A DNA stretch of 64,000 nucleotides from an uncultured Candidatus Saccharibacteria bacterium (GTDB taxonomy: Bacteria; Patescibacteriota; Minisyncoccia; Phycocordibacterales; DATDWN01): NCBI GenBank assembly GCA_964468795.1, contig CAYXWL010000014.1, positions 22,376 to 86,375 of the forward strand, in the 5' to 3' direction. The notes below the pieces were generated by a model that saw only the letters and a program-made list of their open reading frames with translations, searched no databases and had not been told where the DNA came from. The translations under genes were made by a program, and so were the position numbers. Shown here piece by piece: positions 146 through 36,464 of the stretch; position 1 is the first letter of the stretch; the number at the start of each line of letters is the position of its first letter.

Positions 146-189
146 TCTTCTTTTTAAAGACGAAGGCCGGCCCTTTCGAGCCGACCGTA

Positions 190-852: not shown

Positions 853-974
853 GGAACCTCCTAACAAATAGACTATATAAATACACATCTTTAATCAAAT
901 TGACAAAGGTTAGAAATCTAGTAGAAATAGGTACTAGATGCAGCAATTCCGCTGCCCTATTGGAGTTCCTTTAC

Positions 975-2288: not shown

Positions 2289-2294
2289 GAAATA

Positions 2295-2328
2295 ATCCCC
2301 CGAGAGCCATTGGCTCTCGGGGGATGTG
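2295..2328. terminator. bidirectional rho-independent terminator between convergent thyX and dcd
   Basis: Perfect hairpin cccccgagagcc-attg-gctctcggggg. Confidence 0.6.
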
Positions 2329-2343
2329 TGTTTGTCTAAAAAA

Positions 2344-3465: not shown

Positions 3466-3517
3466 TATGTTGTCTCCAAAAAAGAAGATTGTTCTGAGCA
3501 CAAGACTAACACACCCT

Positions 3518-3550
3518 CCAAAATTAAAAAAGACCTCTTTCGAGGTCTTT
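3518..3550 (-). terminator. rho-independent terminator downstream of rplK
   Basis: aaagacctc-tttc-gaggtcttt followed by a T-run on the minus strand. Confidence 0.55.
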
Positions 3551-3562
3551 TTTAATTTGTAG

Positions 3563-3988
3563 TTATCCCTTGATTTCAACTCCCATGCTTCGTGCAGATC
3601 CTGCAATGATCTTCATTGCTGCATCGATGTCGTTAGCGTTGAGATCTGGCATTTTCTTTTCTGCGATCTCCTTGAGCTGGGCCTTTGTGATAGAGCCAAT
3701 CTTTGAGACTGCATTCTTTCCTGATCCCTTCTCCTTACCCATAGCCTTTAGAATAAGTGCTGATGCTGGAGGAGTCTTTAGGATAAATGTGAATGTTCGG
3801 TCCTCGTATACTGAGATTTCAACTGGAACAACATCCCCCATCATCTTTGCTGTAGCATCGTTGAACTGCTTTACGAATTCACCGATGTTAACGCCAGCCT
3901 GTCCGAGGGCAGGTCCAATAGGAGGGGCGGGGTTAGCCTTTCCTGCCTGGATGACGAGTTTTAGCTTTTTTGTAATTTTCTTTGCCAT
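3563..3988 (-). CDS. rplK: 50S ribosomal protein L11
   Basis: [35 protein letters not shown], a canonical L11 N-terminus. Confidence 0.95.
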
Positions 3989-4160
3989 GTTTTTAGCTCC
4001 ACTACTTTATTATAAAAACCTATAAAATGCAAGGGTCTAGAAACTTTCATAATTTGGATGAAATCCGAGGCGGACGAGGAAAATGTTTCGAGCCTTATTT
4101 GAAATAAGGTGAGAAATATTTTACCGAAGTCCAACAAAGGAGTTCGCCAAATTTGGAAGT

Positions 4161-4706
4161 TTATATCTTTTTTACCTGAAGGAAATCTAGCTCTACCGGC
4201 GTTTCTCGGCCAAACATAGCCACCAAAACCTTAACCTTTCCTCTCTCTTCATCAACTTCAGAGACCTTGCCTTCTAGATCCTTGAATGGACCGTCGACTA
4301 TCTTGATAGCATCGTTAAGCTGAAGATCTATTTTGTGCTTAACCTCGTGAGCATTCATTCTTGAGAACAGCTCATCAATCTCTTTCTTTGCGATGGGTAC
4401 AGGATAAACTCCAGAACCTACGAATCCTGTTACTCGAGGAGTATTTCTAACCACATACCACGAATCCTCTGTTACGATCATGTCTACCAAGATGTATCCA
4501 GGGTAGATCTTCTCCTCCTCCTCTACTCTCTTTCCGCCTTTTATCTTGATCTTCTTTTCGGTAGGAACGATTACGTTAAAAATCTTATCTTCCATTCCCA
4601 AAGACTCGATTCTCTGCTTGAGATTTCGCATCACTGCGTTCTCGTATCCAGCGTATGTATGGATAACGTACCAATTACGACCTGTATCTAAGTGTTGTTT
4701 TGACAT
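4161..4706 (-). CDS. nusG: transcription termination/antitermination factor NusG
   Basis: NGN plus KOW architecture (WYVIHTYAGYEN ... KIVDGPFKDLEGKV). Sits in the secE-nusG-rplK arrangement. Confidence 0.9.
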   Translation of the reverse strand: MSKQHLDTGRNWYVIHTYAGYENAVMRNLKQRIESLGMEDKIFNVIVPTEKKIKIKGGKRVEEEEKIYPGYILVDMIVTEDSWYVVRNTPRVTGFVGSGVYPVPIAKKEIDELFSRMNAHEVKHKIDLQLNDAIKIVDGPFKDLEGKVSEVDEERGKVKVLVAMFGRETPVELDFLQVKKI

Positions 4707-4710
4707 GAGC

Positions 4711-4890
4711 TTATATTACAAATTTACCAATAAATAGCTTCAATAGAAAATCAAAGAAACCAAGATAGAAAGCTACGAACACTGAAACTAGAACAACAAC
4801 TACTGTAAAAGCAATAGCCTGTGCCCTAGAAGGCCAGCTTACGTGGTTCAGCTCAGACTGTGTTTCCTTTAAGTATGATATTAAGCTCAT
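4711..4890 (-). CDS. secE: preprotein translocase subunit SecE
   Basis: 59-aa ORF MSLISYLKETQSELNHVSWPSRAQAIAFTVVVVLVSVFVAFYLGFFDFLLKLFIGKFVI immediately upstream of nusG. Below the ORF-track size cutoff; read manually. Confidence 0.75.
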   Translation of the reverse strand: MSLISYLKETQSELNHVSWPSRAQAIAFTVVVVLVSVFVAFYLGFFDFLLKLFIGKFVI

Positions 4891-4971
4891 TTTATTGTAG
4901 TTATCTTTACTAAAAAACCCCTTCCCGGGGAATCGATTACAATAATACTCTTATTTACAAAATATGTCAAT

Positions 4972-6453
4972 CTATTTTGCACAACCATTTGCGCAACTAG
5001 TTAATGTAGCCGGAGGAGTTATATCAATAACATCCCCTTCCTGAAGTCCGGAAAGGATCTCTACATATCCATCACCGCTTTTAAGGCCAAGGCTTACTGG
5101 CGATAGCACGAATTTATCTCCAACTTTCTTCAAAACAGAAGAATTTTCTTTAGTATCAACTATTGAAAAAAGTGGAATAGAAATAACCTTGGATTTCTTA
5201 TCAGTTACAATGGTCAAGCGCGCTGTAAGACCGCTTTTCAACTCCGAATAGACTTTTTCGAATGCAATGCTGACTTTATAATTTACAACTCCGTCAATCA
5301 GAACTTCGCTAGGCTCTATATATGTTACCGTACCAGCATATTCATTGTCTGGAAACGCATCGAAAGAAATGCTGACTGGATCGCCGATTTTAACCTTTGC
5401 AATATTAATCTCTGAAACATATCCTTCTATTTCCATATTGCTATCGGATATCACCGTAACCAGTGTACGTCCTGGATTTACAATCTGCCCGACTTTTGCG
5501 TCCTGCGTTGTAACAAGCCCAGTTTGTGGCGATTTCAAAACCATTTTATTCATCTCTGAATAAATAGATTGCAATTGACCTTGATCTTGCACCACCCGAG
5601 CAACCTGGGCTTTTATAACTTCCGGAGTATTTCCGCTTTTTACCAAAATAAGTTTCTTCTTTGCCAGAGCTAGACTGGACCTTGCATCAGTAAGAGAAGA
5701 CTTGGCTGATATCAAAGTTGATCGTGCTGAGGATAAAGAGCTTCTATAAGTTGCCAAAGTTGTCTCTGGATAATTTGCACTTGGAGTCTGACTATTAACC
5801 GCTTTTGCAATTTTTTCAATGAAAGACGTAACTTGTTGCAAGCTATCATCTATCCTATCTTTGCTCCACTGTGAAAGTAGTAACTCGATATGCACCCTGT
5901 CTGTTCCGAGAGAATCTTTTAACTGACTATCTGCTAGAGGCAGGTTGAACTGAGGTGTGCTTGTATGTGGATTGCTGTATAAGTTATCAACCGTATTGCT
6001 GATTATATCCCTCACCTTGTCCTCCAAACTTTTTTCTGCATCTGAAAGTGCGCTCTCGGCATTACTTAATTCTGTTTCACTGACTGAAACCTGCTCAAAT
6101 GTAGCCCCTTTTCTCAAATTCTCTAAAATAGCCTGATCGGCCGCAACTATAGCTTTAGCTCTCATGACTTCTGCTTTCAATTCACTATCATCCAGATAAA
6201 CCAAAACATCACCTTTTTCAACATGACTGCCGACTTTCACAGAAGTGCTTGCAACCTTTCCACTAACTTCAAAACCCAAATTGACTGATGTTGCAGCTTT
6301 TGTCTTGCCGTTCACTATTACCCTCTGCACTATATCCCCAACCACAATCTTGTATTCAGTATGCTTTTCCTCTTTTGCAGTAATTTTTTTATAGCCGAAA
6401 AAGGCCCCAAAAATAAGTATTGTGAAAAAGATTAGATAAAGAACTTTTTTCAT
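4972..6453 (-). CDS. HlyD-family periplasmic adaptor (MacA-like membrane-fusion protein)
   Basis: N-terminal TM anchor, long coiled-coil section and beta-barrel/lipoyl-like segments. First gene of an operon with ABC ATPase and permease. Confidence 0.75.
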   Translation of the reverse strand: MKKVLYLIFFTILIFGAFFGYKKITAKEEKHTEYKIVVGDIVQRVIVNGKTKAATSVNLGFEVSGKVASTSVKVGSHVEKGDVLVYLDDSELKAEVMRAKAIVAADQAILENLRKGATFEQVSVSETELSNAESALSDAEKSLEDKVRDIISNTVDNLYSNPHTSTPQFNLPLADSQLKDSLGTDRVHIELLLSQWSKDRIDDSLQQVTSFIEKIAKAVNSQTPSANYPETTLATYRSSLSSARSTLISAKSSLTDARSSLALAKKKLILVKSGNTPEVIKAQVARVVQDQGQLQSIYSEMNKMVLKSPQTGLVTTQDAKVGQIVNPGRTLVTVISDSNMEIEGYVSEINIAKVKIGDPVSISFDAFPDNEYAGTVTYIEPSEVLIDGVVNYKVSIAFEKVYSELKSGLTARLTIVTDKKSKVISIPLFSIVDTKENSSVLKKVGDKFVLSPVSLGLKSGDGYVEILSGLQEGDVIDITPPATLTSCANGCAK

Positions 6454-7283
6454 AATAATTTATTGCGCACAGGAATCAGGGCTGGCAAGTCAGATTGTGA
6501 TCCTGATGTTGATTTAATTATATCAGAAATTATTTTTCCATCCGACAAAGTTATTACCCTATGCGCCATTTCAGCATAATCCTTCTCATGAGTAACCATG
6601 ATGATAGTTTGGCCGGCCCGATTAAGTTCGAGAAAAGTCTGCAAAACAATATGAGACATTTCAGTATCAAGGTTTGCTGTCGGCTCGTCGGCAAAAATAA
6701 TATCAGGATTGTGTGCAATAGCTCTTGCAATAGATATTCTCTGTTGTTGTCCACCAGAAAGCTGGTTTGGAAGAGAATATGCCTTGTCACCCAAACCGAC
6801 TTTGACCAAAGCTGATTGAGCAGCTTTCAAAGCTTCGCTTTTAGGTTCGCCGAGCATTAGCAAAGGAAGCATTATGTTATCAATCGCGCACAAATCTGGG
6901 ACCAACGCATAATCCTGAAATATATAGCCAAACTTATTTAACCGAAATGCCGTTCTTTTGCTACATATTTCAGTTAAATAAGTTTGGCTAAATATTTCAG
7001 GATTATGCAATATATAGCCAAACTTATTTAACCGAAATGCCGTTCTTTTGCTACTGCTTAAATGCGAAACATTTATATTATCAATGATAATCTCTCCACT
7101 ATCAGGTTCATCAAGCAAGCTTAGCTGATAAAGCAGTGTAGATTTTCCAGAACCTGATTTACCAGTAATAGACATGAATTGCCCCCGTGGCAATGATAGG
7201 TTTAAATTATTTAACACCACCAATCTCCCCGCTCCGGATAAATAAGACTTGGTCAGATTTTTTACGTCAATTATATATTCCAT
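6450..7283 (-). CDS. ABC transporter ATP-binding protein (MacB/LolD-like) carrying a 30-aa in-frame duplication
   Basis: Walker [10 protein letters not shown], signature [14 protein letters not shown], Walker B IIFADEP. An internal duplicated [14 protein letters not shown] segment is encoded by a palindromic DNA rearrangement at 6905-7053. Confidence 0.8.
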
Positions 7284-7286
7284 ATT

Positions 7287-8570
7287 TTATTTTCCTAAAA
7301 TGGCTTCGAGAGTATTTTGTTTTACGACCAATCTAGCCGGGATATACCCAGCTATTACCGTGACCACAATAAGCCAACCTGCTCTTAAAAGAGTTCCGCT
7401 ATAAGGAGCCACTACTATTCCGTCGCTAAACGGAAAATTAATCGGATGATTGTTTAGATAAGGTATGATGAAAAAATAAAGCACCAACATACCCAAAGAT
7501 GTTCCGATTACTGCATAAAATAGTGACTGGAGCATATAGGCAATTTCAATCGCTGTTGCATGGATGCCTATGGCCTTTAGTATTGCTATATACTTCCTGC
7601 GAGATATGGCATTTATATAAATAACAATAAATATAGTAATAAAAGCAACAACAATGCTGATTGAGCCCATAAGATCTCCGACATAGCTAAAAGTTGCAGC
7701 TACGTCTTTTACCCACTTTGGCAGAGCCTCATAAGAAGTCTGGATTTTTGCAAATCTTCCTATGCCGGCCTTTTTTAAAGCAAGCTGGACCATTTTTGGA
7801 TCTGTTCCTGGAGCAATTTTTATAGAAATTTCACCTACGTTGTAATCAACCTTTCCCATGAGCTCCCTCATAGTTTTTTGTGTGACATAAACTCGCTGAT
7901 CAACATCCCCCACCTTACTACTTAATACTCCTTTGACTGTCATCTCCTTTGTGTTGTTTCCAATCGTAACCCTAACTTTAGATCCAACATCAACATCAGA
8001 AAGCATGCTGATCCCTGGCAATTGTATAGGAGAATAATTATTGAGCAGGTTCGCACCAATAAGCAGGTAGTCATTGTCATCTTCTGATAAGTAAGTTCCG
8101 CTCACAAGATTTCTACTGAGTTCCGTAGTTAGTTCCTCTTTTCTTGGATTAATTCCGGCAATAGAAATAGTCGTAGAATTCGGCTTGTCGTTATAATTTT
8201 CTCTCTGCTTGTAAGTACCCTCGACTGTGCCTAGATGCACATATCTTGAAGAATACGCAACAGTCCACGGCATATTAGTAATTGTATTTTCAATCTGAGG
8301 CGAATTCTCGATAAAATACTTATTACTTAGATTGGATAAAATTATATCGCTGTGGTATCTCTCCCTGTAAATATCCATTGCGCTATCTGCAAGACCGACC
8401 AAAAAACCCTTAATGACGATAAAATTTATAAATGTCATCATCATTATAAAAATAATGAGAAAAGTTGTTCCCATTCGGCTATGCCTTATTTGCCTGACAA
8501 CTAGAAACCAGCCGATTTTAAATGATAGAAATAAATTTTTTATAGGCATTGCTTTTTTATATTGTATCAT
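7287..8570 (-). CDS. ABC transporter permease, FtsX/MacB-type
   Basis: N-terminal TM, large periplasmic domain and a C-terminal 3-TM FtsX-like region. Exact start is ambiguous (M at ORF start or MPIKNL). Confidence 0.75.
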   Translation of the reverse strand: MIQYKKAMPIKNLFLSFKIGWFLVVRQIRHSRMGTTFLIIFIMMMTFINFIVIKGFLVGLADSAMDIYRERYHSDIILSNLSNKYFIENSPQIENTITNMPWTVAYSSRYVHLGTVEGTYKQRENYNDKPNSTTISIAGINPRKEELTTELSRNLVSGTYLSEDDNDYLLIGANLLNNYSPIQLPGISMLSDVDVGSKVRVTIGNNTKEMTVKGVLSSKVGDVDQRVYVTQKTMRELMGKVDYNVGEISIKIAPGTDPKMVQLALKKAGIGRFAKIQTSYEALPKWVKDVAATFSYVGDLMGSISIVVAFITIFIVIYINAISRRKYIAILKAIGIHATAIEIAYMLQSLFYAVIGTSLGMLVLYFFIIPYLNNHPINFPFSDGIVVAPYSGTLLRAGWLIVVTVIAGYIPARLVVKQNTLEAILGK

Positions 8571-8600
8571 TTATTTTATGCATCTAAAGTAGACAGCATT

Positions 8601-8632
8601 AAAAAAACAAACCCTTTCGGGTTTGTTTTTTA
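8601..8632 (-). terminator. rho-independent terminator
   Basis: aaacaaaccc-tttc-gggtttgttt hairpin followed by a T-run, downstream of the 8641-9462 gene. Confidence 0.6.
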
Positions 8633-8640
8633 AATATCTT

Positions 8641-9462
8641 TTATTCGATTTCGTACACAATCGTTACGCTTGAAGTGATTTTATTTTCACCTGTTGGCAG
8701 TGAAGGTGCTGCTTTGCTTTGCATTACTGCTGGCTGTGCCATGCCTGCAACATCGTATCCTGCATACATAGGTATAGGCTGATCTCCGTTTTCATAGAAG
8801 TTTACAACTTTCTTTAACTTCACCTTGAGAGACTTCGACAAAGTTGATGCGTTTGCTTTTGCATCTGCAATAGCCTTATCTCGAGCTTGAATTTTAAGCG
8901 CATCTACGTCGTCCACTGTAAAGCTTAGTCCGCTTATATTTGAGACTCCCAATTCTCCGACTTTGATTAGAACATCGCCAGCCTTATCTGTATTTCGGAC
9001 TTTAACAGTGATTGTTTCATCAACTTCGTAGCCAGTTAGAACCTGCTTTCCAGGAGGAGGACAGTAACCACCAGCACAGATAGTACCTTGAGAAGTCTGA
9101 TACTCATACTTTGGATAAGAATTGTATCCAGAAGTTTGAATATCCTTTTCTTCTATACCCAAGGCCTTGAGCGCAGCGAGTACAGAATTTTCTTTTGCTG
9201 CAGCAAGATCCTGAGCGGCTTTTACTGTCTTGCTAGATTCCATAATGCTGAAAGAAAAAGTCGCAATATCTGGCTTTGCCATCACTTCCCCTTTGCCATT
9301 AACTGAAATGACGTTGGAGGGATAAACCCCCTTGCCTATGTATGCTAACTCTTTTATTGCGGAAAGAGATTTTACTCCTAAAAATACAGCAAGAAGAACG
9401 ACAACTGCCATAACTACTCCGTATAATCTTTTTTTTTGTGTACTGTCTAAATATTGATCCAT
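8641..9462 (-). CDS. SIMPL/DUF541-domain periplasmic protein (YggE-like)
   Basis: N-terminal TM anchor. Pattern VNGKGEV...TFSFSI...GYNSYPKY...TVKV resembles SIMPL-family proteins. Confidence 0.5.
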   Translation of the reverse strand: MDQYLDSTQKKRLYGVVMAVVVLLAVFLGVKSLSAIKELAYIGKGVYPSNVISVNGKGEVMAKPDIATFSFSIMESSKTVKAAQDLAAAKENSVLAALKALGIEEKDIQTSGYNSYPKYEYQTSQGTICAGGYCPPPGKQVLTGYEVDETITVKVRNTDKAGDVLIKVGELGVSNISGLSFTVDDVDALKIQARDKAIADAKANASTLSKSLKVKLKKVVNFYENGDQPIPMYAGYDVAGMAQPAVMQSKAAPSLPTGENKITSSVTIVYEIE

Positions 9463-9519
9463 GAACTTTATATTAATAATAATTATGCTATTTATGTAGA
9501 CATAATTATCGCATATTTA

Positions 9520-26060: not shown

Positions 26061-26147
26061 GGATGGGTGGCTGAGTGGTCTAAAGCAACGGTCTTGAAAA
26101 CCGTCACCTGGGTAACTGGGTCGTGAGTTCGAATCTCACCCCATCCG
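26061..26147 (+). tRNA. tRNA-Ser (TGA)
   Basis: Acceptor GGATGGG/CCCATCC, anticodon stem ACGGT/ACCGT, loop CTTGAAA, long variable arm, T-arm GTGAG-TTCGAAT-CTCAC, discriminator G. Confidence 0.8.
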
Positions 26148-27608
26148 CATAGTAATATTATCGTCATCTTTTGACATCAAATCAAAAGGAGAATGCAAAG
26201 TAAAATCTAGCTTTTTTTGATTTAACACACAGTTCTGGAGTAAGAAACTTAAAAGTTGTCGTTTTTCATTTACTTCGGAACTCATAAAAATCTCTTTTGC
26301 TCTCTTGGCTATACTCAAGAGTATATTTGCTGTTACATAAAATTGTTCATCTGCTACAGAATGGTCACCCATTAACTCTAATATTTCAGCTTGTCTAGAT
26401 TTATATTCGGTTAATAACTTGTCATACATTTCTCCCGTAAGACGGCCGTCCAATCTGTCCTCGTACATCTTCCTTATTCTTATCTCATATTTATCGTAAT
26501 CAGCTTTCAAACTATTCATGCTGTTTTTATGGAACTTGTTTTCACTATCACCTAAATATCTCAATCCACTTTTTATTTCTTCAATTCTCTCATCTGATAA
26601 CTTAATGCTGTCCAAAATAGTATTCACTTGATCAATCAATTCACTTTCAGGCACATAAACTCTTTCACAGTTTTTATACCCTGAACAACTGTAATAAGCA
26701 TATTTACCCTTTTTAAGTTGTCCTCCAACAACACCTCCGCACTTAGAACAAGTTATTAATCCTCTAAACACAAAAGGTTTTGATGCATACTTTGTTGGAA
26801 CTTTATTGTGTCGCTCCATTACTTCCTGACATTTTTCAAATAATTCTTTTGAGACTATAGGTTTATATCTATGGGCATACAGTAATTTATGAGTCCTTGA
26901 ATATGCTTTACCGCAATAAAAATGGTTATTTAGCATATTAAATATCATTGCATGATTTACTTTTCCTCCTTCCTTACTTCGCAAACCAAAATCATACATT
27001 CTGTCAGATAGAGTAACAAAAGATACATCTCCCTTGGAATATTCCTCAAATGTCTTAACGACTAGATGAGCTTTTCCATCTGGAACAACATCAACTCTTC
27101 TCATCCTTAGTGGATTATTGTTATATACACTTTTGTATCCAAGTGGAGGTGCTCCGGTTATATCTCCATCTTCTCTCATCTTGCCTTGCTTTCTCTTTAG
27201 GTTATCACTCAATTGCAATACATAATTTCTAGCAAACAGGACTGACATATCCCACCTCATAAGATCAGCACTATTTGAATTTTTATTTATTACCAAGTTC
27301 TCTCTATAAAAATGAAGCTCGACCTTTTCTGCTTTTCTTAAATCATCAAATACAACTGACTCTCTGAAACTTCTTTGTAGTCTGTCTACAGTATCAACCA
27401 CCAAAGCCAAAGGTTCTTTAGATCTTTGTATTATTTCAATAATCTCATGAAACTTTTTTCTATCTCCTTTGGTTGATGACTCTTTAAGTTTAAACACTTT
27501 CCACTCCTCTAAATCTCTGTTTTTTACATAGGACATTATTCTAGATAACTGTGCTTCGTTTGAGTCCTGATTTTTGTCAGAAACTCTAGCTAATATAATT
27601 GTTTTCAT
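26136..27608 (-). CDS. large serine recombinase (resolvase catalytic domain + recombinase domain + zinc ribbon)
   Basis: ILARVSDKNQ catalytic-Ser motif and VVDTVDRLQRSF. C-terminal CSKCGG...YYSCSGYKNCE Zn-ribbon. Stop codon lies inside the tRNA-Ser 3' end. Confidence 0.85.
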   Translation of the reverse strand: MKTIILARVSDKNQDSNEAQLSRIMSYVKNRDLEEWKVFKLKESSTKGDRKKFHEIIEIIQRSKEPLALVVDTVDRLQRSFRESVVFDDLRKAEKVELHFYRENLVINKNSNSADLMRWDMSVLFARNYVLQLSDNLKRKQGKMREDGDITGAPPLGYKSVYNNNPLRMRRVDVVPDGKAHLVVKTFEEYSKGDVSFVTLSDRMYDFGLRSKEGGKVNHAMIFNMLNNHFYCGKAYSRTHKLLYAHRYKPIVSKELFEKCQEVMERHNKVPTKYASKPFVFRGLITCSKCGGVVGGQLKKGKYAYYSCSGYKNCERVYVPESELIDQVNTILDSIKLSDERIEEIKSGLRYLGDSENKFHKNSMNSLKADYDKYEIRIRKMYEDRLDGRLTGEMYDKLLTEYKSRQAEILELMGDHSVADEQFYVTANILLSIAKRAKEIFMSSEVNEKRQLLSFLLQNCVLNQKKLDFTLHSPFDLMSKDDDNITMRMG

Positions 27609-27627
27609 CTTTTTGTTATTTATTATT

Positions 27628-27975
27628 TTATAAGACTTTATTAATTTTCTCTGCCTCTGCTTTGGCTTTCTGTTGGTAACTTAAATACTCCTTTCTGTTT
27701 ATTGCATACATAGTTGAGTTGCTTAAAAACCTCTCTAGAACCTTAGCCATCGTGGTTTTTTGTAACTTAGCTATATATCTCAAAACGTTAAGATAATTAA
27801 TTCCCAATCTAACTAGTTTAGTTTTCCGGAAAGTCCGTCTTTTAGCTCTATTCTTAGAATTATCCCAAGACTTTCCGATCTCCACCCTCAACTCATCAAT
27901 CCAACCTTTATAATCAAATTCTTTAACTTTTTTCATATTTTGTTTACAATTTTTAATTATCATTTTTCCCCTCAT
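27628..27975 (-). CDS. small basic protein, possible HTH/DNA-binding
   Basis: 115 aa, Lys/Arg-rich. Adjacent to the recombinase. Confidence 0.3.
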   Translation of the reverse strand: MRGKMIIKNCKQNMKKVKEFDYKGWIDELRVEIGKSWDNSKNRAKRRTFRKTKLVRLGINYLNVLRYIAKLQKTTMAKVLERFLSNSTMYAINRKEYLSYQQKAKAEAEKINKVL

Positions 27976-28142
27976 CCATACATATTTTCTTTTGTAATGT
28001 TTATATTCTTTTCAATCAGTTAGGCTCCTCAGTTCCTAAATTTTTGTCTGACAAAAGAAATAAAAAGTTATTTATTGATGAGCATGTGAGGTCCCCCGTT
28101 GGATGACTCCAGAGCGGGGACTTGCACTTGCTCACCAATAAA

Positions 28143-28364
28143 TTACACAGCCGGTTTATTTTCTGAGAAACTCGCTGACGCCCCAGTTACAAAAGATTGT
28201 TTCAAACTATTTTTGCCTTGTAGACTAGAATATAAATTTGGATTTACACGCCTATCTACTTTGTAAAGAAGTGCGAAAAAATCAATCAAGTTTTTGTTTT
28301 CAAAACCTGTTTTAGTTTCGGCGACGAAACTTTTGGTATCATTTTTTCTTACCTTTACTGGCAT
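28143..28364 (-). CDS. hypothetical small protein
   Basis: ORF only. Confidence 0.25.
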   Translation of the reverse strand: MPVKVRKNDTKSFVAETKTGFENKNLIDFFALLYKVDRRVNPNLYSSLQGKNSLKQSFVTGASASFSENKPAV

Positions 28365-28413
28365 GATGCCAGTCTCTCATGTAACTAGTTTTTGCAATAT
28401 GAAATTAAGCGTA

Positions 28414-29223
28414 CTATGCTTGTTTTCTGTGTGATCTTTCTAAAGAGATCATTTTGTTTATATCATCATATGTGTATGGACCAACTTCACCTGATCTACT
28501 AATCTTTTTAAACTTTTGATTTACAAGCTTGGCTAAATCACTTCCTTTTATTTGACGGTTTTCCCAGACAAAAGCTTTTACCTCTTTAATTGAAGACTTT
28601 TTTGCTCGGAATTTGTTAATTTTTATTTCAGGATTTAAATATCTATCTTGAATAGGTTTAACTTCTGTAATAAACATTTTATGGATGTAATCAACTAACT
28701 CATTTTCCTTAACATATGGAGTAATGTTTATTGCAATGGGGTATTCTTTAACCGTTTGCTTGTTAACTTCGTTTCCCTCCACATCATTTTTTCTAATAGA
28801 GTCGCTTACAAGAACTTGCTTATACACGAAAGTATCTACTAAAGAAATCCTTTTGTTATAAAATACGAAAAACTCTACTGTGTCTGACCAACTTCTAATT
28901 GGTAAGGCATATTTTTCACAAATCTTATTTACATCTTTTTTTAATAAAAATTGTGCCTCATGCCCTTCTTTTTCATACCACTCATCTGGAATACTTGGAC
29001 CTTTATTTCTCCACTCATAACCCCTTAGAGGAATATGATGCTTAATTCTAATTGTTCTTACATCACTTAAAAAACGATCACCATTTGAAATCTCTACAAA
29101 ATATTTCCACATCTTTTTGAAAGAATTTGAGGAACGTAATCCTTTTACATTTCTCTCTTTAAAGTGGTCGTTCAAGACCTTTGAGTATTCTTGGTCAAAC
29201 TTGTCGTTTTTCTTCCAGTCCAT
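28414..29223 (-). CDS. hypothetical protein
   Basis: 269-aa ORF with no recognisable motifs. Confidence 0.35.
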   Translation of the reverse strand: MDWKKNDKFDQEYSKVLNDHFKERNVKGLRSSNSFKKMWKYFVEISNGDRFLSDVRTIRIKHHIPLRGYEWRNKGPSIPDEWYEKEGHEAQFLLKKDVNKICEKYALPIRSWSDTVEFFVFYNKRISLVDTFVYKQVLVSDSIRKNDVEGNEVNKQTVKEYPIAINITPYVKENELVDYIHKMFITEVKPIQDRYLNPEIKINKFRAKKSSIKEVKAFVWENRQIKGSDLAKLVNQKFKKISRSGEVGPYTYDDINKMISLERSHRKQA

Positions 29224-29348
29224 AAACGGAATTGTAATGAAATGTATACAAAATAGATAGCCCTACCTACACCAAATTGTGGCTTCTTGTGGCTTTGTTA
29301 TTTCCAATATATCCCTATAAATAAGGCTGTTTTGCCTACACAAGATAC

Positions 29349-29377
29349 TTGACAGAATAGTTAAATGGGTGTATAAT
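29349..29377 (+). promoter_or_regulatory. consensus sigma70-type promoter (TTGACA-17 bp-TATAAT) facing the small-gene array
   Basis: ttgaca at 29349-29354, a 17-nt spacer, tataat at 29372-29377. Followed by palindromes gaaagtgctcaa/ttgagctttc and gggac...gtccc. Confidence 0.6.
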
Positions 29378-29472
29378 TTGGATGTAATAAGTTGTTCTAA
29401 GAAAGTGCTCAATTTGAGCTTTCTCTTGGGACAATTTGGTCCCGATTTGTTCATTTTATCTGGAGGAAATCA

Positions 29473-29685
29473 ATGAAAAAAAGCCGTTATCTCGTGTTCT
29501 GGGTCTTGAACGGAACCATGAACATGGGGACTCAGACCGTAGAACTCAACGGTGTCATGAACACTGCTGAGTTCAACGATCTGCAGAAGAAATTGCGAAA
29601 GCAACACGGCAAGAACCTCTGCATTCAAGCCTTTAGCAAGTTTGAAGGCAATGATCTTCCGGTCATTAACATCAATGTGAAGTGA
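29473..29685 (+). CDS. small hypothetical protein (cassette 1 of GC-rich array)
   Basis: GGAGG RBS. 70 aa. Own GC hairpin terminator downstream. Confidence 0.4.
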   Translation: MKKSRYLVFWVLNGTMNMGTQTVELNGVMNTAEFNDLQKKLRKQHGKNLCIQAFSKFEGNDLPVININVK

Positions 29686-29799
29686 CCCCACCAAATATGG
29701 GGAGACTCAGTCTCCCCATCCCATCAAAGCAATTAAGAAACAATCTTGATTACTTTGATGGGATCAATTTCGATCCAAAGTTCTTTGAGGAGAATTTCA

Positions 29800-30060
29800 A
29801 TGCTCAAGTACAACGGTGGCTGCATGACCACTGAAGAGATCCTGAAGTTTCAGGAGTCCATGACTTTCAGCGATGCTGAAGGTTACTCAATACAGGACAC
29901 CGATCGGATCGTAAAGCATCTCAGACACTGTCAGAAGTGCCACGAGAGATGCGATGACGCGGTTCGTAACTACTTCAAGGAAAAGGAGCTCATTCGCTTG
30001 GGCTTCAAGACCGCAGCACAGATGATGCTCGACGGGATCGACAATCAGCGTCGTTTCTAG
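29800..30060 (+). CDS. small Cys/His-rich hypothetical protein (cassette 2)
   Basis: Start chosen after the conserved ttctttgaggag RBS block. HCQKCHERC cluster suggests metal binding. Confidence 0.4.
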   Translation: MLKYNGGCMTTEEILKFQESMTFSDAEGYSIQDTDRIVKHLRHCQKCHERCDDAVRNYFKEKELIRLGFKTAAQMMLDGIDNQRRF

Positions 30061-30175
30061 CACAACTTCTCCACAACGGGCGAACATCGGGTTCGCCCTC
30101 CCACCAAAGTAATTAAATCTTTTTGATTTCTTTGGTGGGGCAATTTTGCCCCGGTTCTTTCAAATTAGGTGTAGC

Positions 30176-30436
30176 ATGTTTGTTCAAATCGAAGTTCGGT
30201 ACGAATGGTTTGGCCAGAACACGGACATCAGCTTCGTCGGTCCTTTCGAGGATAAGTCGCTCGCTGTTACTTGGAGCGATGAATTCAATACCATCGCCAC
30301 AGTTCGCAAGGTCAAGGCGAAGTCCGAAGTCATTGAGGGTTCACCGACCAACCGAGTCGTCGAACCCGCAAACAAGACACCGCAAACTGTGCTCTCGACC
30401 GTCCTCCAGTCAATCAGCGAGGTCTGCCGAGGGTAA
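30176..30436 (+). CDS. small hypothetical protein (cassette 3)
   Basis: Preceded by the palindromic site and an RBS-like block. Start chosen at MFVQIEV. Confidence 0.35.
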   Translation: MFVQIEVRYEWFGQNTDISFVGPFEDKSLAVTWSDEFNTIATVRKVKAKSEVIEGSPTNRVVEPANKTPQTVLSTVLQSISEVCRG

Positions 30437-30542
30437 CACATACGGGCGACAGAACATCGTCGCCCTCCCATCAAAGTTTTTAATGTTTTGAAAATTTTGA
30501 CGGGATCAATAAGGGTCCTAAGTTCTTTGAGGAGATAGACGG

Positions 30543-31061
30543 ATGATTACTGCCAGAAAAGGTTTTCCGCCGGTTCCGACCGCCGTAGCATCCATTCTGT
30601 TGGTTGCGATCGGTTTGCTCGTTCTCAGCATCATTGGGAGAATGAGTGCCCCGCTCATCGCCTACAACGACGATGGAAGCAAGATGACGGTCTACGCGAA
30701 CGTCATCACCACTGCAATCGAGCAGGCGAAGTATCGTGTCACAGTGAGCACTCACTACGAACCAGGGAAGAAAGCGGTTCGGATCGTCGACATGTATTCC
30801 CTGGAAGACAAGATGCACGCCAGCGTCACAGGGATCATGCGTGAAGATCTTGGTACTTGGGTTCGTACCTGCGCACTTTCAGACGAGAGTCTGAAAGGAG
30901 CACAGCCCCAATGCAACGAGAACGACAACATCGCCCTACGACTACTCGATGAGGCGATGAAGAAGACGATGGTGCGTGAAAACGCCATCGGCAACATGGA
31001 AGTTTTCTGGGCATGGGAACAAGGAACGAAAGAGGTCATCAACCAGATCAAGAACAAGTAA
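30543..31061 (+). CDS. membrane-anchored hypothetical protein (cassette 4)
   Basis: ttctttgaggag RBS. N-terminal TM. Followed by terminator gaccgcc...ggcggtc. Confidence 0.45.
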   Translation: MITARKGFPPVPTAVASILLVAIGLLVLSIIGRMSAPLIAYNDDGSKMTVYANVITTAIEQAKYRVTVSTHYEPGKKAVRIVDMYSLEDKMHASVTGIMREDLGTWVRTCALSDESLKGAQPQCNENDNIALRLLDEAMKKTMVRENAIGNMEVFWAWEQGTKEVINQIKNK

Positions 31062-31092
31062 TACTTCGGTCTGGAACGTCTCCGACAGGACC

Positions 31093-31140
31093 GCCTTGCG
31101 CTAAGCGCTCGGCGGTCTTTCATTTTGTATACTTTTCAAA
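31093..31140 (+). terminator. rho-independent terminator after cassette 4
   Basis: ggaccgcc-ttgcgctaagcgct-cggcggtc followed by tttcatttt. Confidence 0.5.
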
Positions 31141-31437
31141 CACCCCCACTCCCCTCAAAAATTCGGTTTTGTTCGGATTTATAAAATGCCACCTATTTTC
31201 AAGAACAGCTTTAGTTTTACTCTATTTCTGGTATAATTGTGTATACAACTGAATATGGCCTAAACTTTTGAAAACAAGAGCATGGCACAGCAAGTCCTAA
31301 CAGACACAAAAAACCCATCATGGGGTTGTCTGTTAGGCCATATCGGGAAACCGGTATGAGAGGGTTCGCCCTCTACCCGTGGTGGGCTTTTTGTATTCTT
31401 AAAGTCCAAAACGGATTATTAAATTAATTACTAATCC

Positions 31438-31860
31438 ATGGATCAAACAATTCAACCTAAGAGGAGGTGGTACAAAAGTAAATGGTTTATTATTATAGTT
31501 GGAGTAATAGCACTAGTTATATTCTCAAGTTTTGGTGAAAGTAATACAAGCAACACAAGTACTAATCTATCTAACATTCCAAGTTCAGGCGAAGAGGGAT
31601 ACTTAAGAATAGAAAATAGTGAAATAGTTACTTTAGCTAGAACTAAAGAAGATTACGATGAACTCAATAAAGCTATGTATGCTAAAGATACTTACGGTAT
31701 AGCAAGAATGGTGATGGAGAATAAAGCTTTTGATGTTCCTGTTGGGACTAAGGTATTAGTTATTGATCAAAAATTTGGTGGTAGAAAAGTTAGAATACTT
31801 GAAGGTAAATATGCCATGGAAGATGGTTGGGTTGTTATGGAATTTGTAAGTAAGCAATAA
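31438..31860 (+). CDS. membrane-anchored hypothetical protein
   Basis: GGAGG RBS. N-terminal TM. Low-GC. Confidence 0.4.
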   Translation: MDQTIQPKRRWYKSKWFIIIVGVIALVIFSSFGESNTSNTSTNLSNIPSSGEEGYLRIENSEIVTLARTKEDYDELNKAMYAKDTYGIARMVMENKAFDVPVGTKVLVIDQKFGGRKVRILEGKYAMEDGWVVMEFVSKQ

Positions 31861-31862
31861 CT

Positions 31863-32057
31863 ATGAGGCCTGTAATTTCCAAGAAACACGCATTGGAATT
31901 ACAGAAAATAATTAAAGATACTACTGGAAGAAATCTACCCTTAGGGGACTGCTTTGCCCTACTGGGACACCTCTGTGGACTCCTAGGGCTCTTGTGGTCC
32001 GTAGAGGATAGAAAAAATACATCTGAACCCAAGAACAACACGAAGTCATTGTGGTAA
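31863..32057 (+). CDS. small hypothetical protein
   Basis: ORF begins 3 nt after the previous stop. Confidence 0.25.
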   Translation: MRPVISKKHALELQKIIKDTTGRNLPLGDCFALLGHLCGLLGLLWSVEDRKNTSEPKNNTKSLW

Positions 32058-32212
32058 CCAGCTGGTTTGCTTGATTACTAGATATTTTCTATATTATTCA
32101 TTTAAAATACATGCGTTTTGCACTCTTATAAATCCATATTATTTACAATTTTTATCCCCAAATTAACTCTTGCTGCTTTTTATAAACCCATTTGGTATAA
32201 TGTTCGTAAGTA

Positions 32213-33229
32213 ATGCAAAACACTAAAAAACTTAGAACTTTAGATTTATTTGCTGGAATAGGAGGAGTGAGAATGGGTTTTGAAAAAGCAGGATTTGAGA
32301 CCATTTTTGGAAATGATTTTGACCCCTATTGCAAAGCAACCTATGACCTCAATTTCAAAGAGGCTCCTCTTACAGTTGCAAGTATAACTGAACTAAAAAC
32401 ATCAGCCCTACCAAATTTTGATGTATTACTTGGAGGTTTTCCGTGTCAGCCATTTTCAATTGCTGGTTACAGAAGAGGTTTTTTAGACACAGGAAGAGGT
32501 GATTTATTTTTTGAGATTATTAGAATAATTCGAGACAAAAAACCTCAAGCTGTATTTTTGGAAAATGTAAAAAACCTAAAATCCCATGACAAAGGAAAAA
32601 CTTTCAGTATTATCTCGGAAGCTCTTAAAGATCAGGGGTACTATGTAAAAGTAATGGTTCTTAATAGCATGATGTATGGAAATGTCCCACAAAATAGGGA
32701 AAGGGTTTATATCGTAGGTTTCAAATCAAAAAAACAATATGATGCTTTTGAGTTTCCTGTGCCTACCCCTTTAACAAAATCTGTAGAAAGTGTCCTAGAG
32801 AAAAATGTTGATAAAAAATACTATTACAATAATTCCTCACTTTATGAAACTCTAAAAAAATCAGGAATGAAGAAAGGAGTTGTATATCAGTGGAGAAGAG
32901 CTTATGTCCGAGAAAATAAAAATGGAGTATGCCCAACCCTAACGGCTAATATGGGAATGGGAGGTCACAATGTGCCATTGATTAAAGACACTAAAGGAAT
33001 AAGAAAACTTACACCAAGGGAATGTGCAAGACTTCAGGGCTTTCCTGATACATACAAATTACCAACCACTTTACCAGACTCAAAGCTATACAAGCAGTTT
33101 GGGAACTCAGTGACAGTAACAGTAATTGAGCGTGTTGCTGAAGCAATGAAAAGAGCGTTAGAATACAAAGACAATGTTCCTAGACCGACAACCAAAAGAT
33201 CAAGTAGCCTACTACGAACGACTGCTTAA
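32213..33229 (+). CDS. dcm: DNA (cytosine-5)-methyltransferase
   Basis: Motif I LFAGIGG, IV GGFPCQPFS, VI ENV, VIII QNRER, C-terminal QFGNSV. Confidence 0.9.
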   Translation: MQNTKKLRTLDLFAGIGGVRMGFEKAGFETIFGNDFDPYCKATYDLNFKEAPLTVASITELKTSALPNFDVLLGGFPCQPFSIAGYRRGFLDTGRGDLFFEIIRIIRDKKPQAVFLENVKNLKSHDKGKTFSIISEALKDQGYYVKVMVLNSMMYGNVPQNRERVYIVGFKSKKQYDAFEFPVPTPLTKSVESVLEKNVDKKYYYNNSSLYETLKKSGMKKGVVYQWRRAYVRENKNGVCPTLTANMGMGGHNVPLIKDTKGIRKLTPRECARLQGFPDTYKLPTTLPDSKLYKQFGNSVTVTVIERVAEAMKRALEYKDNVPRPTTKRSSSLLRTTA

Positions 33230-34361
33230 AGCGGTTGGCTCTTTATCTAACCTTTTCTCAGAGTCTCCTGAGCCTTATTTGGCGTCCAGGGCTACTGAAA
33301 ACCTATTTTGTAAGGCTTTTAATGCAGAAAACCTTTCAAGATCTGATGCTTCCGCTGATGCTTCAAAAAATCGCATTGGACTTGGTATAAAAACCTTTCT
33401 TGAGGGTAACGGGCGTACCATGCAAAAAATAGCTGAATTCAATGGTGATCACATGCTATTTGAGTCTTTATCTCCTACAGAAAAAATAAAGAAAATAGCT
33501 GAATTAAGGAATGAAAGAATTGAAACAACTAAGCGTATTTTTGGATTAGATGAACTTATTTATCATTGTATAACAAGAAAAGTAGGAAAAATCTTGGTTT
33601 ACGAGACCTCTACTCCATTAATTAATATATCTGAAATTAAAGATGTAAAAGTAAACAAGAAAGAAAGTGTAATTCAATTTTCAGATAACACAGCAGAGTA
33701 TTCATTCAATGTATCCAAAAGCACTCTATATAAAAGATTTATTACTGAAAACATTTTATTGGATGTTCCCGTAAGAATACTTACTGATCCATTTTCAGAG
33801 ATAGAAAAACTTATTGCAGAAAAGGGTCTTATTTTTGCCCCAGAAAAAGTTTTACCTCATGTATTTTTACCTCTTTATTCAACAAGAGGCGGAGATAAAC
33901 ATGTGCCTGAAAAAAGCGGACTAAACCAATGGAATGCTCAGGGAAGACCGCGCGACCTGAATGAAGTCTATGTTCCTATACCAGCATGGATACACAGAAA
34001 GTTTCCTGGATTTTTTCCTCCCAGAGACCAAGCTTTTGAATTAACACTTCCAAATAGAGATATTCTTAGTGCTAAGATTTGTCAGGATAATTCAAAAGCC
34101 TTAATGAGTAACCCTAACTTAGCTTTAGGTAAATGGCTTCTAAGAGATGTAATGAACTTAAAGGAAGGTGAACTTCTTACTTATGAAAAATTGCAGACAA
34201 TTGGGCTAGATGCAGTAGTAGTCTACAAGATAGATAACCAGCATTATGATATTGATTTTACAAAAATTGGATCTTATGAAAAGTTTGAGATTGAGAATGG
34301 AGAAGGAACAAAGGATGATGAGTCGGAAACCATTACTGAACAAGACCAAGACGAAGAATAA
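33174..34361 (+). CDS. putative type II restriction endonuclease partnered with the C5-MTase
   Basis: 395-aa ORF overlapping the MTase 3' end. No recognisable family motif; called by position. Acidic C-terminal tail. Confidence 0.35.
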   Translation: MFLDRQPKDQVAYYERLLKAVGSLSNLFSESPEPYLASRATENLFCKAFNAENLSRSDASADASKNRIGLGIKTFLEGNGRTMQKIAEFNGDHMLFESLSPTEKIKKIAELRNERIETTKRIFGLDELIYHCITRKVGKILVYETSTPLINISEIKDVKVNKKESVIQFSDNTAEYSFNVSKSTLYKRFITENILLDVPVRILTDPFSEIEKLIAEKGLIFAPEKVLPHVFLPLYSTRGGDKHVPEKSGLNQWNAQGRPRDLNEVYVPIPAWIHRKFPGFFPPRDQAFELTLPNRDILSAKICQDNSKALMSNPNLALGKWLLRDVMNLKEGELLTYEKLQTIGLDAVVVYKIDNQHYDIDFTKIGSYEKFEIENGEGTKDDESETITEQDQDEE

Positions 34362-34494
34362 CCAGCTACCGAACAATACTAAAATTATTATATAAAATTA
34401 ATTCTTGAGTCACTTTATTAAAATTTATAGTTCTAAACGCATTTAACCATTCCCGCAGACAAAAACACCATACAAATGGTGTTTTTGCTTTTAA

Positions 34495-34686
34495 GCGGAT
34501 GGGGTGAGATTCGAACAGATAGGGGTCGGGAAAGAAAGTCTTTCCCGGGGAGGAAGGCTTGGGAAAACCGTGGGTTTACCAGAGGTTCGCAGACTCACCA
34601 TTCCGACAACGAGTCGCGGTCGAAAGAATCTTGTTTTGCCGAAAACAAAATTACTTGAGACGGAATCTCACTCTTTCTCCCCTCCC
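34495..34686 (+). repeat. tRNA-fragment-associated structured element, copy 1 (inverted tRNA-Ser 3' fragment + conserved hairpin)
   Basis: Positions 34495-34516 are the reverse complement of tRNA-Ser 3' end gttcgaatctcaccccatccgc. Hairpin cgggaaagaaagtctttcccg. ggaaaaccgtgggttt shared with copy 2. Confidence 0.5.
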
Positions 34687-36238: not shown

Positions 36239-36310
36239 GCTCTCGTAGTTTAATGGATAGAATGCAACTTTGCGGAAGTTGCGATCCAAGTTCGATTCTT
36301 GGCGAGAGCA
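36239..36310 (+). tRNA. tRNA-Arg (GCG; anticodon assignment tentative)
   Basis: Same scaffold as the 22415 tRNA (GCTCTCG...GTTCGATTCTTGGCGAGAGC). Anticodon stem CAACT/AGTTG, loop TTGCGGA. Confidence 0.55.
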
Positions 36311-36464
36311 CAAAATATACGTAGTAGATTTTGCTTGAGCCAAAATCGAACTAGATAGGGGTCGGGAAAGATAGTCTTTCCCGTGTCGGAAAGCAGCGAG
36401 CAGAGCGAGCGTTGGAAAACCGTGGGTTTCCAAGGAGAGAGATATCCTGGCGAGAGCACAAAAC
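36311..36464 (+). repeat. tRNA-fragment-associated structured element, copy 2, bounded by a direct repeat of the tRNA-Arg 3' end
   Basis: ggcgagagcacaaaa at 36301-36315 and 36449-36463. Interior hairpin cgggaaagatagtctttcccg plus ggaaaaccgtgggttt. Confidence 0.5.

Follow-up and report, generated by a model that had tools for sequence, protein, structure and literature searches.

A conserved three-hairpin unit between the small genes of Patescibacteria arrays, a candidate intercistronic mRNA module and cassette junction

What lies between the four small genes of a GC-rich array in an uncultured Candidatus Saccharibacteria bacterium, and why does the sequence conservation reside in the spaces between the genes and not in the genes themselves? 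The array is part of a stretch of 64,000 nucleotides (contig CAYXWL010000014.1), here called the window, to which all coordinates refer unless another locus is named; loci from other genomes and from metagenomes carry L numbers. Our work showed that the three intercistronic spaces, examined for repeat families and inverted repeats, are copies of one unit of ~105 nt. The unit is a real, widespread and conserved element of Patescibacteria, for which we found no catalogued counterpart. We favor, with a probability of roughly 0.5, the reading that it is a cis-acting intercistronic mRNA module, functioning in processing, stability or translation, that doubles as a junction for cassette shuffling.

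The array starts with a consensus sigma-70 promoter, continues with four open reading frames (ORFs) on the plus strand and closes with a canonical intrinsic terminator, and it is most likely a single transcription unit (Table 1). A sequence-only reading of this DNA had described the perfect promoter, which scores 12/12, the ORFs of 70, 86, 86 and 172 aa, and a recurring block composed of a hairpin, the palindrome tcccaYcaaag/ctttgRtggg and a GTTCTTT-Shine-Dalgarno (SD) segment; all of these were recovered, the third ORF with its ATG at 30176 and the block in all three intergenic spaces. It was also right that the array is richer in GC than its surroundings (0.51 at 30001-31000 versus 0.32 to 0.38 in the flanks), and the GC content at third codon positions (GC3) is 0.63 to 0.69 in the four ORFs versus 0.24 to 0.41 in the neighboring genes. 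The spacer of the promoter (..TTAAAtGGGTGTATAAT) is kept in other loci, and near-identical promoters with the same spacer (TTGACA..TTAAAGGGTGTATAAT) head related modules in L017/L018, L001, L091, L099 and L152 as well as in the window. The closing terminator, an inverted repeat (GACCGCC...GGCGGTC) followed by TTTCATTTT, also follows homologues of ORF4 in L020 and L021. We further observed that a 17-nt inverted repeat, TGAAATGTATACAAAAT / ATTTTGTATACTTTTCA (16/17 matches), brackets the whole module from promoter to terminator, and that TTGTATAC occurs three times within 2 kb, compared with 1.7 occurrences expected across the 64-kb window. The bracketing repeat could be an operator of the island promoters or a boundary of the module.

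To describe the unit, we aligned 37 copies and built a covariance model (CM), which at E<1e-9 matched 121 units, 115 of them distinct. Three hairpins follow one another in the unit. The first, hp1, is a GC-rich hairpin of 5 to 12 bp whose sequence is free: it is present in 112 of the 115 units, with 98 distinct sequences, and that of the third unit in the window, GGGCGACAGAACATCGTCGCCC, is found in L099 and L126 too. The second hairpin, hp2, abuts hp1 without a linker (0 nt apart in 104/115 units) and has the conserved stem UCCCAYCAAAG...CUUUGRUGGGA, which an AU-rich inner stem extends to a helix of 17 to 20 bp with one internal mismatch or G.U pair; the spacing between its arms varies from 15 to >40 nt. 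The third, hp3, is a hairpin of 3 to 9 bp that was found in 108/111 units; the GGGA closing hp2 doubles as part of its 5' arm. On the 3' side of hp3 come a single-stranded GUUCUUU, the SD sequence and, 13 to 16 nt past GUUCUUU, the start codon; the exact GTTCTTT is present in 104/115 units, 11 to 19 nt past hp2. Units 1, 2 and 3 of the window score 71.9, 66.8 and 83.6 bits with the CM (E-values from 1e-13 to 1e-17) and have fold z-scores of -6.8, -4.4 and -4.8 against dinucleotide shuffles, beyond what random GC-rich intergenic DNA yields. The fold of unit 1 reaches -44.4 kcal/mol, and the z-score of unit 3 is -4.8 on the plus strand versus -3.1 on the minus strand. As a separate observation, several units of L027, L087, L109, L124 and L104, which are different genomes, share the segment CCGGCGCGTCAGCCCGG(t/c)ATCGTC ahead of the hp1 subtype CCGAGGAAGTCATAAATCCTCGG; some subfamilies of the unit thus reach ~30 nt further upstream.

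The leader between the promoter and ORF1 is a head version of the unit without hp1 (fold z-score, -4.8). It corresponds in diverged form to the 3' two-thirds of the unit and gives a weak CM match of 29.6 bits (29372-29467). Its variant of hp2, GTTGTTCTAAGAAAG...CTTTCTCTTGGGAC, also occurs inside arrays elsewhere (L073), and the same type of leader stands 3' of the promoter in L099. The order hp2-hp3-GTTCTTT-SD without hp1 directly follows promoters in L090 and L091 as well as in L099 and the window. The natural reading is that hp1 is the 3'-end structure of the upstream cistron and that hp2-hp3-GUUCUUU-SD is a standard 5' untranslated region. The sequence-only reading had taken the GC-rich hairpins for private terminators, which is doubtful. 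What comes after hp1 is not a U-run but the start of hp2, UCCCAYCA (for example UCCCAUC); lacking a U-tract, hp1 is not a canonical terminator, and a terminator scan called no hp1 on the plus strand. The only terminator-like matches inside the units of the window are hp3 with its T-rich tail (29761-29776, 30136-30153 and 30502-30519).

Which strand, and which nucleic acid, does the selection on the unit concern? RNAalifold gave an hp2 of 17 pairs. Across the 115 distinct units 97.9% of the cells are paired, with double changes at 12 of the 17 pairs (176 cells); none of 500 shuffles reached this pairing, and sliding the partner by one to three columns reduced it to 42 to 65%. There are 265 G.U cells versus 40 non-pairs, and three positions are mostly G.U or U.G. 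Because these wobbles turn into A.C mismatches on the opposite strand, the sense strand is the more stable one, as seen in 86/91 units (mean of -38.4 versus -31.3 kcal/mol; Wilcoxon p=6e-15). The CM likewise scores 60 to 90 bits on the gene strand versus 25 to 40 bits on the opposite strand. The unit is a strand-specific structure that folds on the coding strand. Moreover, the synonymous sites of ORF4 are saturated (synonymous divergence, dS, of 0.9 to 2.1) between loci whose upstream units are still alike, and hence the units themselves are under selection.

These data bear on the earlier proposal that the palindrome is a double-stranded operator, at which a dimeric repressor would co-regulate the cassettes. 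The candidate repressors are a 115-aa basic protein encoded at 27628-27975 and, in other loci, a TrmB-like regulator. An inverted repeat with conserved 11-bp arms would suit this role, and a gene of the TrmB family, with a helix-turn-helix (HTH) domain, lies 1 to 1.5 kb upstream of the arrays on the same strand in 11 other loci. However, a duplex operator should have no strand preference, whereas the G.U pairs of hp2 lie on the coding strand only and stability is specific to the sense strand. The sites are located inside a transcribed operon, downstream of its only promoter, all in one orientation and at a fixed distance from the ribosome-binding site (RBS), and the distance between the arms is far from constant. 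The 115-aa protein has neither a Pfam domain nor an HTH match, nor a homologue in L001-L134, a set that includes all 40 genome loci with units, and the window contains no TrmB homologue. We therefore consider it most improbable that the palindrome serves as an operator.

A second possibility arises from the overlap of hp2 and hp3. In the folding ensemble the shared GGG(A) is held by hp2 to 78% and by hp3 to 19%, and hp3 is favored in 19/104 units. Each unit could then be an attenuator in front of its cistron, with hp3 and GUUCUUU as a weak terminator and hp2 as the antiterminator that competes for GGGA, such that the extent of transcription would depend on a factor acting on hp2, or on ribosomes that complete the upstream ORF, with stepwise expression as the outcome. 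In favor of this, the arrangement is kept across units, hp3 cannot form without the GG(G)A at the close of hp2, and the terminator scan flags hp3 and its tail in all three units of the window. Yet the stems of hp3 are only 3 to 7 bp long, its tail has 5 U in 8 positions with interruption by C, and hp2 is far more stable, so that read-through would be the default. The same module also stands behind promoters, a place at which termination would shut off the first gene, and we found no candidate sensor. Attenuation is, on balance, a doubtful explanation.

How far is the unit spread? We scanned one genome per GTDB species with a degenerate pattern and found 113 loci, 40 of which have true units; the other 73 arose by chance in the coding DNA of other phyla. 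Thirty-seven of the 40 are in metagenome-assembled genomes (MAGs) labelled as Patescibacteria lineages (Zambryskibacteria, Kaiserbacteria, Paceibacterota, Parcubacteria, Minisyncoccia, Wildermuthbacteria, Saccharibacteria and Patescibacteria), and the remaining three are in two unclassified bins and on one 2.8-kb contig binned as Nitrospira. The palindrome search of metagenomes that had been suggested along with the operator was productive: a stricter pattern gave 41 loci in JGI metagenomes, mostly from groundwater, of which 40 are true. The largest arrays have 8 units (L104), 6 (L027 and L109) and 5 (L073), all on the same strand within an array. Contigs with homologues of ORF4 carry a unit ahead of that gene (L001, L004 and L019). 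No Rfam 15 family reached its gathering threshold in the units, the best sub-threshold match being Xoo1 with 23 bits (threshold, 70), and literature searches on unit-related terms retrieved no published description. There is no evidence for a phage origin: a pattern scan of IMG/VR returned 12 matches, all chance matches in coding sequence, and blastn of the array against phage and plasmid collections returned none.

Could such an element be a selfish miniature repeat, of the MITE/REP/BIME kind or an IS200/605-type palindrome, that inserts at GTTCTTT and is tolerated as harmless or mRNA stabilizing? In 17/92 units a second GTTCTTT lies just 5' of hp1, often as TAGTTCTTT, and a hairpin cluster flanked by this sequence on both sides resembles a target duplication. 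In addition, the structure folds from a single strand, and subfamilies of hp1 and hp2 are common to different genomes. However, the unit is not dispersed, as the 64-kb window has units (three, plus the leader) in the array only; every unit lies on the gene strand of its locus, in a fixed register to SD and ATG. hp3 moves with the downstream ORF and not with hp1 and hp2, clustering of the ORFs revealed no transposase or RAYT gene in the loci, and hp2 is under strong purifying selection next to saturated synonymous sites. A selfish origin is thus very unlikely.

In contrast to the units, the genes they separate are hyperdiverse. ORFs after units across ~80 related loci code for 33 to 305 aa (median, ~95) and are almost all mutually unrelated singletons, which agrees with the cassette-like pattern of conservation proposed from the sequence. 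We searched 76 cassette proteins against Pfam and obtained seven family matches, each in one protein, such that ~93% had no match; PHROGs and PADLOC gave generic HTH or sigma matches, none of them meaningful. The roles suggested in the sequence-only reading, namely phage early genes, anti-defense or toxin/immunity functions, are guesses. The four ORFs of the window and the small proteins of its surrounding island have no Pfam match. Nevertheless, the four small ORFs are real genes, and coding constraint on ORF1, ORF2 and ORF4 is evident. ORF1 has homologues of the same length with 79% and 44% identity. For ORF2, which contains the Cys/His cluster, we found a homologue in the metagenome locus L176, a 111-aa ORF that is likewise placed behind a unit (54% identity across 61 aa, E 2e-23); a large-database search for ORF2 returned a near-identical relative only. 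An exact look-up of ORF3 in a public collection led to a 5-member 90% cluster of near-identical relatives only, and its GC at the three codon positions is like that of the other cassette ORFs. ORF4, the membrane-anchored protein of the sequence-only reading, has an N-terminal hydrophobic helix and is the only widely shared cassette, with 11 homologues of 55 to 99% identity; its ratio of nonsynonymous to synonymous divergence (dN/dS) of 0.12 to 0.32 indicates purifying selection. A Foldseek search of its AlphaFold2 (AF2) model against the PDB gave no fold match below E=0.5. ORF4 stands alone between promoter and terminator in L017 and L021, second behind one cassette in L004 and L019, mid-array in L001 and last of four in the window. 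Exact protein look-ups of ORF3 and ORF4 returned the same arrangement only and no alternate context. As a side observation, an array interval of L022 (reverse-oriented, 4696-6480) contains a 594-aa ORF that by eye resembles a protein of the TROVE/Ro60 type with a vWA-like C terminus.

The unit marks the points at which arrays swap cassettes. Another array, in L137, contains the ORF1 cassette with 100% identity across 300 nt (L137 896-1195 = window 29427-29726), and there a different type of promoter, a 102-aa ORF, hp1 and a canonical hp2 lie upstream of it. The identity begins at T/GGGAC (the slash marks the breakpoint), a position that is at once the 3' foot of hp2 and the start of hp3. L149 and L152 are 98% identical over 1.9 kb from G/GGACGAATAG onward, and this junction is preceded by hp1 and hp2 in L149 and by a promoter in L152. 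An all-against-all search for near-identical cassettes in different contexts yielded these two clean junctions only. hp3 and the SD region move with the ORF that follows them: ORF4 is joined by ACGAATAGTTCGT and GAGATAGA in L001, L004 and L019, whose hp1 and hp2 differ. Subtypes of hp1, hp2 and hp3 re-assort, with the hp1 GGGCGAGTTGTTAACTCGCCC behind four unrelated ORFs and before four different hp2 (L004, L096, L137 and L176), a mosaic that homologous exchange between units could also yield. Finally, about nine terminal units have no gene downstream (e.g., L052_1490, L087_1222, L126_2160 and L056_7656); they keep hp1 and hp2, their similarity to the consensus ends right after GGGA, and they have no GTTCTTT, SD or ORF.

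These junctions raise the question of whether the array is an integron-like platform that operates on DNA. In this view a single strand folded into hp2 would form a structure-specific recombination site like attC, with a crossover at the 3' foot of hp2 (..GAT/GGGAC), the cassette would be [hp3-GTTCTTT-SD-ORF-hp1-hp2], and the promoter and leader hairpin would act as Pc and attI. We regard this as the main alternative, although it is probably not correct. It accounts better than an mRNA module for the terminal units and for the precise junctions: both near-identical comparisons, which are independent, break exactly at the hp2/hp3 boundary. Up to 8 units behind one strong promoter, mostly orphan ORFs between conserved repeats, the changing place of ORF4, and a GC content unlike that of the host are also in its favor, as arrays are usually GC-richer than their flanks (0.49 versus 0.37 in L056; 0.52 versus 0.42 in L124). 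Several genomes, furthermore, have the array at a conserved chromosomal site beside rpsO and the gene for a TrmB-like regulator, as would a sedentary chromosomal integron. However, no tyrosine or other shared recombinase lies beside the arrays of 44 loci including the window (the 40 metagenome loci are outside this set), serine recombinases are present in 4 loci only and resemble island integrases, and the attC core sites RYYYAAC/GTTRRRY are absent from the units of the window and from the consensus. Stability lies with the coding strand, whereas in attC it is the bottom strand that recombines; homologous exchange among similar units explains the re-assortment of the hairpins equally well; and precise junctions number only two. 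What such evidence would point to, with rather low probability, is an unrecognized cassette-capture system of Patescibacteria, parallel to integrons in function and unrelated in mechanism, in which the hairpin is cut or exchanged at its 3' foot (..GAUG/GGAC). If this were true, mobile single-gene cassettes would gather behind a conserved promoter, either at the rpsO-TrmB site or on serine-recombinase islands, by means of recombination machinery encoded in trans, which conceivably works with a conserved structured non-coding region of 300 to 700 nt at the array head.

Our preferred reading remains an intercistronic mRNA module. We hypothesize that the sigma-70 promoter drives the four small, foreign, GC3-rich cistrons into one polycistronic RNA, which the intrinsic terminator would end and the units would punctuate as sites of endonucleolytic processing and/or of exonuclease arrest. 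hp1, at the 3' end of the upstream cistron and stacked on hp2 without a linker, would protect that end, while hp2 and hp3 would form the 5' end of the downstream cistron and present the U-rich/SD region to the ribosome. Processing at the unit would thereby make each cistron a stable, separately translatable mRNA. As every cassette carries the same module, the module would also be the place at which cassettes are exchanged between arrays. That the unit works at the level of RNA and not of single-stranded DNA is our inference, and so are its cleavage or protective effect, the involvement of a nuclease or binding partner and a role for GUUCUUU.

Several points weigh against this reading. Single-stranded DNA of the top strand would give the same asymmetry of G.T pairs, and RNA is hence not proven. 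The conservation of the hp2 stem across classes of Patescibacteria exceeds what an RNase III site or a stabilizing hairpin needs, which implies a sequence-specific partner. The terminal units fit recombination in which a cassette ends with hp2 better than they fit the 5' untranslated region of a next gene, and the second GTTCTTT is unaccounted for by an mRNA module. Attenuation is an alternative RNA mechanism, given the competition for GGGA and the terminator-like hp3-GUUCUUU, and the effects on processing, stability and translation are all deduced from sequence and predicted structure.

Table 1. Features of the array, its island and related regions (window coordinates unless a locus is given)
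Feature	Position	Strand	Remarks
Island	26061-34400		~8 kb
tRNA-Ser	26061-26148
Large serine recombinase (Resolvase/Recombinase/Zn_ribbon_recom)	26136-27608	-	overlaps 3' end of tRNA-Ser
Sigma-70 promoter TTGACA-17-TATAAT	29349-29377	+	heads array
5' leader, 95 nt	29378-29472	+	head version of unit
Leader hp2-variant hairpin	arms 29391-29405 / 29420-29431	+
Leader hp3	29428-29443	+
Leader GTTCATTT	29449-29456	+	followed by SD GGAGG 29462-29466
ORF1, 70 aa	29473-29685	+	small soluble protein; GC3 0.63
Unit 1	29686-29799	+	hp1 29699-29717; hp2 29719-29763; hp3 29761-29776; GTTCTTT 29780-29786; SD 29787-29792
ORF2, 86 aa	29800-30060	+	Cys/His cluster HCQKCHERC; GC3 0.69
Unit 2	30061-30175	+	hp1 30078-30098; hp2 30099-30139; hp3 30137-30152; GTTCTTT 30154-30160; weak SD AGGTG 30167-30171
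ORF3, 86 aa	30176-30436	+	orphan; GC1/2/3 0.53/0.40/0.64
Unit 3	30437-30542	+	hp1 30444-30465; hp2 30466-30505 (one A.C, one G.U); hp3 30502-30519; GTTCTTT 30522-30528; SD 30529-30534
ORF4, 172 aa	30543-31061	+	N-terminal transmembrane helix, six-stranded beta domain, C-terminal helices (AF2 model, pLDDT 68)
Intrinsic terminator	31089-31125	+	closes array
Bracketing inverted repeat, 17 nt	29238-29254 / 31122-31138		third TTGTATAC at 31236-31247
LOOT RNA (Rfam RF03000)	31257-31374	+	81 bits (threshold, 46.4), full length; ~130 nt past array terminator
Dcm C5-methylase	32213-33229		3' of array
NgoFVII-like restriction enzyme	33174-34361		3' of array
Direct repeat, ~66-80 nt	34517-34582 / 36353-36434		1.84 kb apart
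tRNA-Arg	36239-36311
Second GC-rich block	130-3480
Thymidylate kinase	190-888	-	second GC-rich block
ThyX-like	900-2288	+	second GC-rich block
420-aa ORF	2344-3606	-	second GC-rich block
Array-head non-coding region	L104 1624-2790; L027 (reverse-oriented) 3067-4270		also L124, L103, L022, L041 and L083

The setting of the array supports the earlier claim of a horizontally acquired module: it is located on an island beside a tRNA-Ser gene, together with a large serine recombinase, and its GC3 is foreign to the host. The further cargo of the island consists of two small proteins, a LOOT RNA, a 140-aa protein and a restriction-modification pair of the Dcm/NgoFVII-like type. The LOOT RNA was not found in 18 other array loci and is probably separate cargo of the island, and we treated it as such; inspection by eye showed a TATAAT of its own ~30 nt upstream and, at 31372-31395, a short hairpin with a T-run. 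Flanking genes in the window resemble those of a Zambryskibacteria MAG (L052/L124). Elsewhere, a group I intron (RF00028, 84.7 bits) at 9212-9478 on the minus strand of L001 overlaps the 3' end of a serine recombinase gene (7678-9378), on a contig that also carries an array with an ORF4 homologue.

Two further features of the window are observations in their own right. A second GC-rich block, with a GC content of 0.48 to 0.55 and a GC3 of 0.64 to 0.68 like the ORFs of the array, contains no units and looks like a further foreign segment with the same codon bias. In addition, a GC-rich direct repeat with an internal hairpin, GGGAAAGAAAGTCTTTCCC, whose copies are 85 to 88% identical, flanks genes for DUF2127, DoxX-like and 153-aa proteins and a tRNA-Arg; it has no Rfam match at the gathering threshold.

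Other arrays have a more elaborate head. In many of them, a conserved non-coding region of 500 to 740 nt, with 72 to 80% identity between genomes, separates the TrmB gene from the first unit. As read in L104 and L027, its AT-rich center has divergent consensus promoters and its GC-rich flanks look structured, the right one with a long-range pairing of GCGGGGGTGGGT and ACCCACTCCCCGC and with GTTCTTT at its end. Rfam gave no match in this leader region, including that of L104, and it is possibly one or two new structured RNAs. By eye, the TrmB-like gene adjoins rpsO and type IV pilus genes in three of the 11 loci that have it. Because it is absent from the window and from most loci, we rejected the TrmB-like regulator as a universal partner of the arrays.

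Why does the unit matter? The Patescibacteria, or candidate phyla radiation (CPR), are a large group of mostly uncultured bacteria with tiny genomes, and little is known of their regulatory RNAs and mobile elements. An easily recognized module of 105 nt marks hypervariable arrays of small genes and thus gives a handle on an accessory gene pool that could include host-interaction, anti-defense or surface proteins. The unit is also a candidate portable element for expression or processing in the engineering of Patescibacteria, it offers a concrete test of whether cassette capture evolved independently of integrons, and, as Rfam 15 does not contain it, it could be submitted as a new family.

Among known systems, a CRISPR array was ruled out: it would have repeats of 23 to 50 nt and non-coding spacers of 25 to 50 nt, whereas the units are ~105 nt long and the intervals between them are ORFs of 213 to 519 nt with SD and start codon. 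The cassette arrays of integrons, such as the VCR repeats of Vibrio chromosomal integrons, are alike in many respects. They have one promoter at the head and short, mostly orphan, promoterless ORFs in one orientation, separated by a hairpin-capable repeat of ~100 nt that is similar within and between genomes. Their cassette content varies among relatives, with junctions at the foot of a hairpin and a GC content unlike that of the host, and the same cassette occurs in different arrays, as the ORF1 cassette does in two. Unlike attC, the unit has no adjacent intI or recombinase, and the units of the window and the consensus lack core sites and L-boxes. It also folds on the coding and not the bottom strand, it contains the RBS region of the next gene, and its stem sequence is kept across the classes of a superphylum.

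In the early region of phage T7, the RNase III hairpins R0.3 to R1.3 are processed such that protective hairpins remain at the 3' ends. Like the array, this region combines a strong sigma-70 promoter with polycistronic small genes and has a hairpin of ~20 bp with an internal mismatch just before the next RBS, and the length of hp2 (17 to 20 bp, one internal mismatch) is compatible with a predicted intercistronic processing site of the RNase III type. The unit differs in its three contiguous hairpins, in the strong conservation of the stem sequence, and in its location on the chromosome or on a Patescibacteria island, with no real match in IMG/VR. REP/BIME, ERIC, Correia and pneumococcal BOX elements are transcribed palindromes inside operons that fold in mRNA and affect its stability or its processing by RNase III or E. 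They are dispersed over the genome in both orientations and have no link to an RBS, and Correia and ERIC have terminal inverted repeats and target duplications. The unit shares with them the repeated imperfect palindromes inside operons but is confined to arrays, strictly oriented and equipped with the translation start region.

Two reports on plastids describe how an intercistronic expression element (IEE) or a site of the PPR10 type turns polycistronic RNA into stable, translatable monocistronic mRNAs, and how such sites determine where the upstream RNA ends and where the downstream RNA begins (PMC2230500, PMC3326301). As described there, these elements are single-stranded sequences bound by helical-repeat proteins, whereas the unit is mostly helical and belongs to a different domain of life. 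In summary, we file the unit as akin to two known kinds of system, the intercistronic elements of RNA processing and expression and the cassette arrays.

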